53,527 bases of DNA from an uncultured Gammaproteobacteria bacterium (GCA_964527425.1 CAZGOA010000007.1:1-53527); one strand, 5' to 3'. Positions 1 to 2,938 are shown, numbered from the stretch's first letter. Notes: a model not told the origin generated them from the sequence alone. Made by a program: numbers and translations.

Positions 1-1
1 A

Positions 2-631
2 AGGAAAAAATACGCTTAAAACTTTTGTCCTAAGATGTGTGGATCTCCTTCAATTCAAGCCTACGAAATGGACTTTTTAACGGTTAAGTTACTTCAGGAG
101 ATAACTCCAACGGATGATTGCCTAAATGGCTTCATATCCTTACTCCGCCGTACCTATTATAAAAGGGTTGCAAGACTACAAAAACGCAAAGATGAGGCTG
201 ACTCGGATATGAAACGGTTGCAGGGACTTAGACAGTCCTTAATTGAGAAGAACTTAAGCGGTATATACAGCGATGAAATCTTTAAAGAACAGAACAGGTT
301 GATTGAAGAGCAAATGGCAAAAGTTCAGGTTACCAAAGACGATGCTATTCTTTCCAAATACAATCTTGAGGCAATCGTTAATTTTATGAAGGATAAATTT
401 GCTGATTTAGGCAAAACCTACCAGCAATCTGATATTCACCAGATACGGGTGCTATTGTGTTCGATATTCCCCTCCGGAATGTCTTGGAGCTATCCGGGCT
501 TTTCGAACACCTCGGTTAGCCCGTTATTCCAATACATTCAGGGTTTTGCCACAAATAGCGCCCCATTTGGTGAGCATGGAGGGACTCGAACCCCCAACCG
601 ACTCCTTAAGAGGGAGTTGCTCTACCATTGA
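2..631 (+). mobile_element. C-terminal part of a large serine recombinase (zinc ribbon plus coiled coil), with an in-frame TAA at 17-19; 3' end runs antisense into tRNA-Lys
   Basis: Frame reads RKKYA*NFCPKMCGSPS (zinc-ribbon-like), then a long coiled coil (RLQGLRQSLIEKNLSGIYSDEIFKEQ) typical of resolvase/recombinase tails; overlaps the tRNA at 568-631. Confidence 0.65.
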
Positions 632-642: not shown

Positions 643-693
643 TGTCATGGGACAAAACCTAAGGTTTTTTCCCAACGATTTTCCTCTACATGT

Positions 694-857
694 ATTGCAA
701 GAGATCTTCTCTCATGACCACACTCTTGCAACTATTTGTATTTTATTATTCTAATTTTTTCTGATTCCATTTAAAAACAAGATTCTTTCCAGCTATCTTC
801 ACTTATTTGTGTCACGAGGTATCTACACACATTACCACACCCTCATGACTATTTGTA
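694..857 (-). repeat. Two 46-nt hairpin units with conserved 5' flank and loop but different, compensating stems
   Basis: Minus strand: TACAAATAGT-stem-TGTGGTnATGnGnGnAGAT-stem at 694-740 and 811-857. Confidence 0.7.
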
Positions 858-938
858 CCTTGCTACCATTCTTACTTTTGGCAACGGTACTTCTTGTCTT
901 AAAAATTACTATATTTTAAATTTCCTTTATATTAATTG

Positions 939-1012
939 CACCTCTGGAGGGATTTGAACCCCCAACCTCATCGTCCGAAGCGATGCGCTCTATCCAGTTG
1001 AGCTACAGAGGC
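939..1012 (-). tRNA. tRNA-Arg(TCG)
   Basis: Reverse complement GCCTCTGTAGCTCAACTGGATAGAGCG-CATCG-CTTCGGA-CGATG...GGTTCAAATCC...CAGAGGTG forms a cloverleaf. Confidence 0.95.
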
Positions 1013-1437
1013 ATAAAATTTTTATACCATCCATATTCTTTTGCTGTTTTCTTTTTATGACAGTTACTACATCTAACTACACATTTTTCAATCTCTTTAA
1101 TTACTTTCGTTAATACTTGATCTCTTTTTATTAATGACACATTAAATTTTTTATCTCTGGTATGATCGAATTCTAATACAACTGGATCTTTTTCTCCACA
1201 ATCGATACATGGATGGGTTAAGAAATAATTCAAAATATATCTTGTATTTTCATTTCTATTAAAATTATTTCTATTTTTTGCTTTTCTTAAATAGTAGCTC
1301 TTATTATTGTAATAATGTTTTTTCACTTCTAATCTTGTACAAATTTTACAAGCATTGTGCCTAATGCCTAAAGTTTTATCTTTAAAATTAAAAAAATCTA
1401 TTGTTTTTTCTAATTTGCATTTACAACACTTTTTCAT
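1003..1437 (-). CDS. Free-standing HNH endonuclease (N-terminal CxxC...CxxC, C-terminal CxxC-HNH)
   Basis: PCIDCGEKDPVVLEFDH...VRCSNCHKKKT motif; very low GC. Confidence 0.8.
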   Translation of the reverse strand: MKKCCKCKLEKTIDFFNFKDKTLGIRHNACKICTRLEVKKHYYNNKSYYLRKAKNRNNFNRNENTRYILNYFLTHPCIDCGEKDPVVLEFDHTRDKKFNVSLIKRDQVLTKVIKEIEKCVVRCSNCHKKKTAKEYGWYKNFMPL

Positions 1438-1610
1438 ATCTTTAGTTTAATTAAGTGAATTTTTGAAATCAATTTTAAAATTCGAAGTTATTAATACAAT
1501 ATAAGACTAAATATTTTATATATAACGCTATAGGTAGTGAGTCTTATACTTTAACCAACACTATAGATAGCTTGACAGGTGTTAAACATTCGTGTCAGTA
1601 TAGAATCTAT

Positions 1611-2216
1611 ATGATTCGGAAAATTGCCATAAGTATATTATGGTTTCCTGCATCGTTAGTACTTCTCTATATTAACCTTCTAGTACTACCAACATATCTT
1701 AAACCAAATTCATCTTTGGCTTTTGATAACATACTTAGTCCACTTGGTGATACTACTCCATATCATCTTGCATCCTCAAATACTTCAAAAGTATTAGGTA
1801 CACAGATTATTGCTGGTGATGCACGTATACATTTAATAGAAGATTTCTTAATCCGTCATAATTCGCCGCTTTCGCCATATGCGCAAAATTTTGTCGAGGA
1901 AGCTGATAAAAATGGTATTGACTTCCGATTAGCAGTATCGATTGCAATGTGTGAATCAAACTTGGGTAAACGCATACCGTCGCAGGATTCGCATAATGCG
2001 TGGGGAATTGCTGTGTACACCGGACAACAGCATGGTAAAAATTTTGAAGATTGGCCATCGGCGATAGCCTGGGTTTCTACCTACCTTAAAGAACGCTATC
2101 TCGATCGTGGTCATGATACGCTGCGCGAAATAGGCTCAATATATGCACCTCCTTCTGTAGAAAAAGGTCATTCGTGGGCACGCTGTGTGGAAGAATTCCA
2201 GAGTCGTATATTTTGA
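1611..2216 (+). CDS. Membrane-anchored lysozyme-fold / glucosaminidase-like protein, paralog 1
   Basis: N-terminal TM, then SPLSPYAQNFVEEADKNGIDFRLAVSIAMCESNLGK...NAWG. Confidence 0.65.
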   Translation: MIRKIAISILWFPASLVLLYINLLVLPTYLKPNSSLAFDNILSPLGDTTPYHLASSNTSKVLGTQIIAGDARIHLIEDFLIRHNSPLSPYAQNFVEEADKNGIDFRLAVSIAMCESNLGKRIPSQDSHNAWGIAVYTGQQHGKNFEDWPSAIAWVSTYLKERYLDRGHDTLREIGSIYAPPSVEKGHSWARCVEEFQSRIF

Positions 2217-2285: not shown

Positions 2286-2324
2286 TCCTAAGGTGGAATT
2301 CGATGTCTGCTTTAGGGTTTTTTT
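2286..2324 (+). terminator. Intrinsic terminator-like hairpin immediately downstream of the promoter
   Basis: TCCTAAGGTGGA-attcgatg-TCTGCTTTAGGG followed by T7. Confidence 0.6.
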
Positions 2325-2377
2325 GTGGCCATTTTTTTAAACTAATCACTCTCCCTGCCGCAATGGTGCCACTTTAT

Positions 2378-2938
2378 ATGTTTCGTTCTTTAGCGATTAT
2401 ATTGTTAGTTATAAGTATTCTTAGTTTCACTCCACAAACTCATGCTCTTGAAAAAGTAGCAGGGAGTACTGGTCAGCTCATGATTCATTCTATAGCAGAA
2501 CGTTCTGATCCAGTTGATATGCGCGTACTCAAATTACAGGCATATTTTGAAAAATATAACTCTCCGTTAGCGCCATATGCAGATATATTTGTACAGCAAG
2601 CTGATGAACATGCACTTGACTGGAAGCTCGTCGCCTCTATTGCTGGTTTGGAATCCACTTTTGGTAAATTTATTCCACAAGGATCATATAACGCATGGGG
2701 ATGGGGTATACCTACCGGCGCTTCAAAAGGTCTGGGATTTTCTGATTGGGAAGACGGAATCGCAACTGTATCGGAAGGATTAAAACAAAAATATGTCGAT
2801 AGAGGCTTAACTACTCCCGAGCAAATGGGACGTATTTACGCTGCGTCACCTACGTGGGCAAGCAAGATTTATTTCTTTATGAACGAAATTGAAAAACAGC
2901 AGATTGAGAATAATGCAGTGCTGGCTATGAACTTATAG
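2378..2938 (+). CDS. Secreted lysozyme-fold / glucosaminidase-like protein, paralog 2
   Basis: Signal peptide, then NSPLAPYADIFVQQADEHALDWKLVASIAGLESTFGK...YNAWGWG; clearly paralogous to 1611-2216. Confidence 0.65.
   Translation: MFRSLAIILLVISILSFTPQTHALEKVAGSTGQLMIHSIAERSDPVDMRVLKLQAYFEKYNSPLAPYADIFVQQADEHALDWKLVASIAGLESTFGKFIPQGSYNAWGWGIPTGASKGLGFSDWEDGIATVSEGLKQKYVDRGLTTPEQMGRIYAASPTWASKIYFFMNEIEKQQIENNAVLAMNL

Follow-up and report, generated by a model that had tools for sequence, protein, structure and literature searches.

The tRNA-Arg(tcg) and tRNA-Lys(ctt) genes of the 53,527-nt stretch of DNA analyzed here (GCA_964527425.1 CAZGOA010000007.1:1-53527, hereafter the window), which carries the label of an uncultured Gammaproteobacteria bacterium, are separated on the minus strand by a 295-nt spacer, and the question that this locus raises is what the structured sequence within that spacer is and what it may do for the tRNAs. 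The initial annotation had placed there two hairpin units 117 nt apart on the minus strand, with stems that differ but stay paired and with a shared 19-nt loop. The two units are present as described, and the flanking tRNA genes are called by both ARAGORN and the Rfam tRNA model. The pattern TACAAATAG-N9-TGTGGTNATGNGNGNAGAT, with ≤3 mismatches allowed, occurs twice in the window compared with 0.00 occurrences expected from 100 shuffles, and it occurs twice in the entire 1.18-Mb, 17-contig genome. The pairing of the stems holds fully for unit B, which has 9 perfect base pairs, and in part for unit A, which has 8 pairs and a terminal G.A mismatch. The fold of hairpin 1 in unit A is more stable in the sense orientation than in the antisense orientation (-14.2 vs -8.2 kcal/mol), and the fold of the spacer beats those of shuffled sequences on both strands, with a z of -4.2 for the minus strand. 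The imperfect third hairpin reported at about 855-890 is also found in the minimum-free-energy fold, and no BLAST or model match in another genome extended to it; judging from these comparisons, it does not belong to the conserved family described below.

When the window spacer was used as a BLAST query against about 60 related genomes, the sequence that matched was not the 19-nt loops but a 38-nt block at 647-684 (GGAAAATCGTTGGGAAAAAACCTTAGGTTTTGTCCCA), downstream of unit B. This block, which contains the hairpin that we call hairpin 2, was recovered at 85-95% identity in 12 of the approximately 60 genomes, representing several families of the class, and it was located just upstream of a same-strand tRNA or protein gene in every locus except L011. 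It is preceded by a hairpin (hairpin 1), the stem sequence of which changes from locus to locus. A covariance model, R1, was built from the alignment of the 12 instances with a two-hairpin consensus. In the window's genome (G000), R1 matched 644-742 with 85.9 bits over all 99 model positions and 769-859 with 30.7 bits, so that the two units are not equivalent; in the rest of that genome, the search at E≤1 returned nothing but a weak reverse-strand echo of hairpin 2. A relic with a weak score of 14.6 bits precedes tRNA-Gly(tcc) on contig 11. The stretch 644-742 (minus strand) is, by its match to the model, an intact copy of a structured RNA motif of about 95-100 nt, having all of its parts and ending 5 nt before tRNA-Lys. 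Unit A (769-859) is a tandem duplicate, as is seen when it is aligned with unit B and with the positional ortholog from the sister genus G210; it has kept hairpin 1, but its linker has decayed, and so has its hairpin 2, in which the G-C clamps are lost. The variable half of the element had thus been recognized at the outset, but its most conserved part, the linker and hairpin 2, had been missed. The coordinates are listed in Table 1, including a promoter match from which transcription would begin near 741, where the A-rich box of unit B lies.

Table 1. Positions of the element, its decayed duplicate, and neighboring features in the window.
Feature	Position	Strand	Basis and remarks
tRNA-Arg(tcg)	938-1012	minus	ARAGORN; Rfam tRNA model, 66.3 bits; upstream neighbor on the same strand
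Imperfect "third" hairpin	855-890	minus	In the minimum-free-energy fold
Unit A, A-rich box TACAAATAG	849-857	minus	Sequence; model positions 1-10 of the R1 match 769-859
Unit A, hairpin 1	812-848	minus	8 bp with one U.G; 19-nt loop; sequence and fold
Unit A, parts: 5' arm; loop; 3' arm; CACA	848-840; 839-821; 820-812; 811-808	minus	
Unit A, decayed linker and hairpin 2 (CACAAATAAGTGAAGATAGCTGGAAAGAATCTTGTTTTT...)	769-811	minus	Alignment to unit B and the G210 ortholog
Sigma-70-like promoter match TTTAAA-16-TAGAAT	748-775	minus	Consensus scan only, no proof of function
Unit B, A-rich box TACAAATAG	732-740	minus	Box of the intact copy
Unit B, hairpin 1	695-731	minus	9 perfect bp; 19-nt loop
Unit B, parts: 5' arm; loop; 3' arm; TACA	731-723; 722-704; 703-695; 694-691	minus	
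Single-stranded linker UACAUGUAGAGGAAAAUCGU	675-694	minus	85-95% identity to copies in other families
Hairpin 2, U-GGGAAAAAACC / UUA / GGUUUUGUCCC-A	648-674	minus	12 bp; conserved internal A.G mismatch
5-nt spacer UGACA, hairpin 2 to tRNA +1	643-647	minus	Sequence
tRNA-Lys(ctt)	568-642	minus	ARAGORN; Rfam tRNA model, 72.5 bits; RNA behind the element

The anatomy of the family was derived from 222 model hits, of which 166 are distinct. The 5' part is an A-rich box, AWAAAUYY, corresponding to TACAAATAG in the window. It is followed by hairpin 1, with a stem of 7-11 bp of free sequence and a loop of 12-22 nt that includes one variable core of about 12 nt and usually has GUG at its start and GWGAAUA/GAAUA or GAAGAUC at its end; the shared 19-nt loop is therefore not a hallmark of the family, across which it is reduced to its 5' GUG and 3' GAAUA or GAAGAUC. 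Between the hairpins lies a conserved purine-rich linker, AGGGAAAAUCGUU, with the family consensus ACACnnAUUAGGGAAAAUCGUU. Hairpin 2, GGGAAAAAACC-GUA-GGUUUUGUCCC with U/A flanks, is near-invariant and more conserved than any other part of the element, having a stem of 11-12 bp, a loop of 3-4 nt, and an A.G mismatch that is kept at the fifth position. After hairpin 2, a spacer of about 4 nt leads to the downstream RNA. The purine-rich sequence GGGAARA is present in both the linker and the hairpin-2 arm, the first seven bases of which recur in the linker. In most G-type copies, the linker tracks the A/G change at position 6 of the arm, but it shows no such correspondence at position 4; a switch in which the linker would compete with the hairpin-2 arm for pairing with the 3' arm was therefore set aside, and the repetition seems rather to reflect subfamily structure or a binding motif present twice.

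The two helices are supported by covariation. In 101 distinct rows, 97.7% of the cells are paired, a figure somewhat inflated because the alignments A2 and A3 were fitted to the model, and 15 of the 18 pairs show changes on both sides. Compensatory changes are seen in all 7 modelled pairs of hairpin 1, and in hairpin 2, 8 of the 11 pairs covary, with 99.4% of the cells paired. None of 500 shuffles reached the observed values, and shifted registers were 31-65% paired. Furthermore, an independent mutual-information scan returned the helix pairs as the top column pairs. Among the 88 informative copies, hairpin 1 folds better in the sense orientation in 69 and in the antisense orientation in 19 (Wilcoxon, 2e-9), and it contains 93 G.U pairs; because the sense folds prevail and G.U pairs are so frequent, the structure is read as one of sense-strand RNA. 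The proposal of an RNA-level structure on the tRNA-sense strand is thereby borne out, whereas both the context and the strand specificity of the G.U pairs disfavor the alternative of a single-stranded DNA site.

The element is undescribed, with no matching Rfam family or paper. At the gathering threshold, Rfam 15 identified only 3 tRNAs in the window, and at E≤10 on 540-1040, its matches over 644-859 were at chance level (rliD, 14.6 bits, where the cut-off is 50; YrlA, 14.4 bits, where it is 69). This comparison took in tRNA, hammerhead, twister, pistol, hatchet, HDV-like, and CRISPR direct-repeat models, and Rfam likewise matched none of the related loci. A degenerate tRNA or pseudo-tRNA was rejected, since ARAGORN and the Rfam tRNA model see only the two flanking tRNAs, and the suggestion of an unannotated RNA thus stands. 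The literature, including two 2026 preprints on intergenic motif discovery, yielded no description of the element, and to our knowledge, no described bacterial motif is placed ahead of tRNAs (4 nt before +1) as well as of mRNAs (immediately before the Shine-Dalgarno site). In being conserved, intergenic, backed by covariation, and restricted to a lineage, the element resembles the orphan Weinberg-type motifs of Rfam (PMC5737381), from which it differs in that the Rfam 15 models do not match it.

Absence of further instances had been named as the finding that would speak against the motif, and the covariance model recovered more than 150 copies. R1 matched 40 of 301 Microgenomatia genomes, most of the class having no detectable copy, and the number of copies per genome ranged from 1 to about 15, with 15 in each of two genomes that were searched singly; the counts from the large searches are lower bounds, the filters being strict and the number of candidates scored being limited. 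In a sample of the phylum (401 genomes), a single weak match was obtained outside the class, among about 375 other Patescibacteria. As far as these searches indicate, the element is restricted to the class Microgenomatia.

To describe what lies downstream, we used 126 distinct copies of at least 75 nt. Of these, 61 end just before a same-strand tRNA, and 28 different anticodons are represented. In a larger set, the end of the model falls between -1 and +7 nt from the tRNA +1 in 62 of 71 cases, and the gap to the tRNA is 3-11 nt, most often 4. Approximately 25-35 copies have a strong Shine-Dalgarno site and a start codon within a few nucleotides. Eight kinds of downstream protein were confirmed by Pfam, namely HU, YbaB/EbfC, L7/L12, S21, Hsp20, ATP synthase c (AtpE), an RRM protein, and DUF5679. 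S20 and other small downstream proteins were recognized by visual inspection. In 15 cases, the copy has a tRNA on either side, with the upstream one only 11-48 nt away; a full promoter would not fit into this distance, and these copies are thus probably internal spacers within polycistronic precursors. Upstream of tRNA-Pro or unidentified RNAs, 2-3 units follow one another in tandem about every 85 nt, and the units of these arrays are short and do not have the canonical hairpin 1. Good TATAAT boxes are often found 5-12 nt or about 55 nt upstream of the A-rich box. Given these positions in tRNA leaders and spacers, co-transcription with the tRNAs, as proposed initially, is very likely. A link to the flanking "HNH" or "recombinase" ORFs was not found, neither ORF matching the corresponding Pfam family. 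The copies elsewhere precede tRNAs and housekeeping mRNAs.

Several other roles were considered and rejected. The A-rich box TACAAATAG is unlikely to act as a -10 box, because its information peaks on the A-run (AAA), a -35 signal is absent, some copies lie just 11-30 nt after an upstream tRNA, and a separate TATAAT is often found further upstream. An intrinsic terminator or attenuator does not fit, as hairpin 2 is followed by GAAU, UGAC, or a similar sequence and then by the tRNA, not by a U-run; a terminator scan of 643-937 returned none. Replacement of a missing RNase P was dismissed, since all 6 genomes searched, with or without the element, have a full-length, divergent match to RNase P RNA. 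An antisense or guide function gave only chance-level target matches in the window's genome. The DUF5679 zinc-ribbon, the gene of which recurs downstream, was tried as a dedicated partner, yet this family occurs in 238 of the 301 genomes without correlation with the element and is absent from the assembly of the window's genome.

On the comparisons made here, the element is best regarded as a conserved structured cis-RNA, unusual in serving both tRNAs and mRNAs; for each known family that could be tested, it lacked the defining features. The reading that we favor, to which we give an evenly balanced chance of being correct, is that of a cis-acting leader or spacer RNA module for expression and processing that is recognized by a housekeeping factor. 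In transcripts, the element would form a 5' leader or, where several tRNAs are transcribed together, an internal spacer; RNase P would cut it off tRNA precursors, and mRNAs would retain it as a structured 5' UTR immediately ahead of the ribosome-binding site. Because hairpin 1 has drifted while the linker and hairpin 2 have stayed almost invariant, the latter two are the putative binding site of a trans-acting factor, for which an RNase, RNA polymerase, the ribosome, or an abundant RNA-binding protein may be considered as candidates. A housekeeping factor is more likely than a dedicated accessory protein, since the consensus is kept even in the window's genome, which has only one copy. The downstream RNA would probably be affected in its yield, its stability, or the definition of its 5' end. 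It may further be suggested, tentatively and as more likely wrong than right, that the linker and hairpin 2 dock a housekeeping factor through which Microgenomatia co-ordinate tRNA output with that of their most abundant small proteins at the RNA level. If this is true, the co-ordinated proteins would include HU, YbaB, L7/L12, S20, S21, Hsp20, and ATP synthase c, and the element would be the leader of a post-transcriptional "growth regulon" or, equivalently, a natural RNA-processing insulator giving defined, context-independent 5' ends to whatever RNA follows. The element would act most like a shared 5' leader or processing signal, its nearest analogs being the boxB-boxA and put leaders, CIRCE, the t-elements, and the synthetic RiboJ and Csy4 insulators.

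The history of the locus bears on the first alternative, in which the element would be a selfish or neutral repeat, MITE- or REP-like or spread by gene conversion, that builds up without benefit to the host in harmless transcribed spacers close ahead of tRNAs and highly expressed genes. Across the family of the window's genome, synteny of the tRNA-Arg(tcg)/tRNA-Lys(ctt) pair is kept. Its spacer measures 0-7 nt in three genomes without the element, 139 nt in the sister genus G210 with one element, 295 nt in the window with one intact and one decayed element, and 309-340 nt in three genomes that have a GIY-YIG nuclease ORF instead; therefore, the element is an optional occupant of this spacer. 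It is also dispensable, with no detectable copy in most genomes of the class and none seen upstream of 41 of the 43 tRNAs of the window's genome, many of which have a plain TATAAT box 7-12 nt upstream and most of which are without a structured leader. In one MAG, the likeness of four copies, some of which are in tandem, spans about 150 nt and takes in the Shine-Dalgarno site and 45 nt of upstream sequence. These near-identical copies point to amplification or gene conversion and are also in keeping with a selfish repeat, for which the patchy distribution and the variation in copy number described above speak as well. Sequence subfamilies cross taxonomic lines, the window copy being nearer to copies of another family (86%) than to its own positional ortholog, and tandem duplicates and upstream copies truncated in the hairpin-2 loop recur. 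From these comparisons, the element is one that has been duplicated, homogenized, and lost over time.

Several observations speak against a purely selfish repeat. Neither terminal inverted repeats nor target-site duplications, which mark MITE, IS200/IS605-derived, and REP elements, were seen in the aligned copies, the two hairpins are unrelated to each other, an associated transposase was not seen in the loci read, and viral contigs contained zero copies, which also led us to reject a phage origin. The element shares with MITE, REP, and Correia repeats its short length, multiple intergenic copies, hairpin potential, and homogeneity of copies within a genome, and some of those repeats themselves carry promoters or RNase sites. 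It differs from them in its fixed orientation and distance to the downstream RNA, its 3' end being precisely placed relative to the tRNA +1 or the Shine-Dalgarno site, and in the deep compensatory divergence of hairpin 1, which would reflect long evolution in place under structural selection. Since the linker and hairpin 2 are near-invariant across families while hairpin 1 drifts by compensatory changes, sequence-specific purifying selection on these two parts is indicated, beyond what recent spread alone would produce.

A second alternative, which we consider distinctly unlikely, is that the excised leader or spacer is a stable trans-acting sRNA, for example, a protein sponge, with tandem arrays raising its dose. 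Its ends would be made by tRNA 3'-end processing or a transcription start on one side and by RNase P on the other, and this would suit the 15 copies that have tRNAs on both sides, the arrays of 2-3 units before tRNA-Pro or unidentified RNAs, the repetition of GGGAARA in the linker and the hairpin-2 arm, and the presence of hairpins that would protect both ends. However, the approximately 25-35 copies that are 5' UTRs abutting a Shine-Dalgarno site would not be released by RNase P, the window's genome has a single copy, and a complementary target was not found in that genome.

Improbable, as the third alternative, is a signal at the level of transcription, either as nascent RNA bound to RNA polymerase, in the manner of put or of boxB-boxA antitermination or anti-pausing, or as a CIRCE-like DNA operator, in which three GGGAAAA boxes (two direct and one inverted) would bind a global regulator. 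The promoters near many copies and the resemblance of the downstream genes to a growth-related regulon speak for this reading, as does the repetition of GGGAAAA at a 12-nt period. Like the boxB-boxA signals of rrn leaders and the put RNA of phage HK022, the element is a promoter-proximal cis RNA with stem-loops and a conserved single strand that can precede any downstream gene; unlike them, it has no boxA consensus, it is not found before 16S rRNA, and many of its copies are inside tRNA clusters, distant from promoters. For antitermination, 16S rRNA is the prime client, and tRNAs are too short to need it. R1 matches were absent near the 16S rRNA genes of G210 (C12:489026) and the window's genome (C3:103754), and antitermination of the rrn type was rejected. 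CIRCE, the operator of HrcA, is comparable in having conserved inverted repeats between promoter and start codon that are common to a set of genes, and CIRCE itself also works as an RNA hairpin, but the element serves tRNAs, has the A.G asymmetry and a second, variable hairpin, and has hairpin-2 pairs that covary within single genomes, the closing pair changing from U-A to C-G. This covariation fits base pairing rather than half-site recognition, and the strand-specific G.U pairs in hairpin 1 also argue against a DNA operator.

Finally, a new self-cleaving ribozyme or a tRNA-minihelix mimic ("t-element") steering 5' trimming by RNase P or RNase Z is very improbable, in that the compact two-helix fold with invariant junction nucleotides, the 12-bp hairpin 2 resembling an acceptor stem stacked on a T stem, and the fixed short distance to the functional RNA are set against the absence of matches to ribozyme families even at E≤10, a hairpin-2 loop of 3-4 nt that is not a T-loop, the lack of CCA after the hairpin, a stem length that varies between 11 and 12 bp, and the presence of RNase P in any case. 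The t-elements of plant mitochondria, mascRNA/MALAT1, and the 3'ETS-leuZ of E. coli are comparable to the element in that the ends of an RNA adjacent to a tRNA or tRNA-like fold are set by tRNA-processing enzymes, and they differ from it in that the element is not tRNA-like, lies on the 5' side, and is also found before mRNAs.

Arrays with spacers were considered as well. A CRISPR array does not fit: an array holds 2-3 units, L049 has the same sequence between its units, and the best match to a direct-repeat model (E=4.7) lies elsewhere. In TIGR arrays, of which the units number about 5-15, box C/D motifs flank the two spacers of 8-12 nt in each unit, and TIGR systems have been reported in parasitic bacteria (PMC12045711). 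The element is similar to these in its variable palindromic stems, short conserved loop motifs, and tandem arrays, and it is dissimilar in having 1-3 units, one variable loop core, and an invariant second hairpin that follows. TIGR-Tas was rejected, as PF01798 (Nop domain) was not matched in the element-bearing genomes G000, G223, G210, and G169, with archaeal controls being positive.

If the favored reading of a cis-acting leader or spacer module is correct and the element defines or stabilizes any downstream 5' end, it would be a natural counterpart of the RiboJ and Csy4 insulators and, if insulator-like, a compact candidate part for expression design. The CPR/Patescibacteria are uncultivated, and the control of gene expression in them is almost unexplored. 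A covarying motif with more than 150 copies in one class, associated with tRNA genes and with genes of small, typically abundant proteins, may therefore offer a handle on RNA processing and regulation in Microgenomatia. With respect to annotation, the tRNA spacers and 5' UTRs of such MAGs hold a recognizable RNA feature that is left blank by current pipelines. An exact-pattern scan of approximately 186,000 species genomes returned 91 stretches, all in MAGs, which are labelled as Gottesmanbacteria, Roizmanbacteria, Levybacteria, Microgenomates, generic Patescibacteria, or Gammaproteobacteria, with two labelled as Saccharibacteria. The Gammaproteobacteria label on element-bearing MAGs is probably wrong. 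Mis-binning in the source data is suggested by several of the MAG labels and by a MAG in which 16S rRNA was matched four times.

Three relatives belonging to the family of the window's genome carry, in the spacer between tRNA-Arg(tcg) and tRNA-Lys(ctt), a small, free-standing ORF of about 82 aa for a GIY-YIG nuclease in place of the two-hairpin leader element; the copy at locus L157 matched PF01541 with E=1e-17. The spacer seems to be an insertion hot spot. In the window, the initial annotation had named the ORFs flanking this tRNA pair 'HNH' and 'recombinase'. The former label was not confirmed, because the 144-aa Cys-rich ORF had no match to Pfam HNH (top match UPA-FIIND, E=0.026), its HNH-like CxxC...H...N...CxxCH pattern being judged by eye. 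The 'recombinase' label likewise could not be substantiated for the coiled-coil-like ORF at the contig start, to which no Pfam family was assigned (top match DUF2732, E=0.1). Two neighbouring paralogous ORFs are probably cell-wall hydrolases, as judged from glucosaminidase-domain matches (PF01832) that were weak and both under the curated cut-off (E=2e-5 and 3e-3, in table order).

Features around the tRNA pair, and related loci in this and other genomes
Feature	Location	Strand	Remarks
Cys-rich ORF, 144 aa	window 1003-1437	-	directly upstream of tRNA-Arg, overlapping it by 10 nt
ORF truncated by contig start	window 1-631	+	extends antisense into tRNA-Lys
Paralogous ORF	window 1572-2216	+	PF01832
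Paralogous ORF	window 2303-2938	+	PF01832
GIY-YIG spacer ORF	L155:1154-1493		relative G023
GIY-YIG spacer ORF	L157:1186-1494		relative G030
GIY-YIG spacer ORF	L159:1169-1500		relative G012
Weak element relic	G000:C11:36554-36634 (L167:355-435)	-	14.6 bits with R1, the element's covariance model; upstream of tRNA-Gly(tcc)
DUF5679/RNase P RNA	G017:C1:707463-708015
DUF5679/RNase P RNA	G223:C6:393572-395727
DUF5679/RNase P RNA	G210:C33:175432-178865
DUF5679/RNase P RNA	G310:C1:404291-406246

Across the whole genome of the window (G000; 43 tRNAs), a clear TATAAT box lies just 7-12 nt upstream of +1 of many tRNA genes, suggesting very short 5' leaders. At tRNA-Gly(tcc), this genome retains a weak relic with hairpin 2 reading GGAAGAAAAC-GCUA-GUUUUCUGCC; the element at this tRNA is intact in five other genomes.

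Further conserved sequences, probably structured, were found 3' of element arrays: GGTCAGCGCTCTATGTTACTGAGGAGG... (L049:1100-1575(-), L051, L052, L144, L082, L083, L104 and L139) and, preceding tRNA-Pro, GGTCCGAATTACGnAGAC, which is conserved in the leaders of L050, L053, L054 and L055. No Rfam family matched these sequences, and they may represent another, new RNA or a leader. One array unit (L054:1521-1595, minus strand) contains a G+C-rich palindromic insert of 38 nt (CCCGCCTGCAACGCGTTGC...GCGGGCAGGC), which sits precisely at the junction of linker and hairpin 2.

Two element copies (L099:6873-6968 and L126:5256-5351) come from MAGs that bear the label Saccharibacteria, which is another class; their presence there could be due to horizontal transfer or a wrong label, or could mean that the element ranges more widely. 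In another MAG, G210, four 16S rRNA matches were obtained, with scores of about 1508-1552 bits on contigs C1, C38 and C39 versus a lower 1348 bits on the main 990-kb contig C12, a pattern that suggests contaminating contigs in the bin. The same MAG is one of four genomes in which the genes for the DUF5679 zinc-ribbon protein and for RNase P RNA are 0.1-3 kb apart, and this proximity is a conserved neighbourhood.
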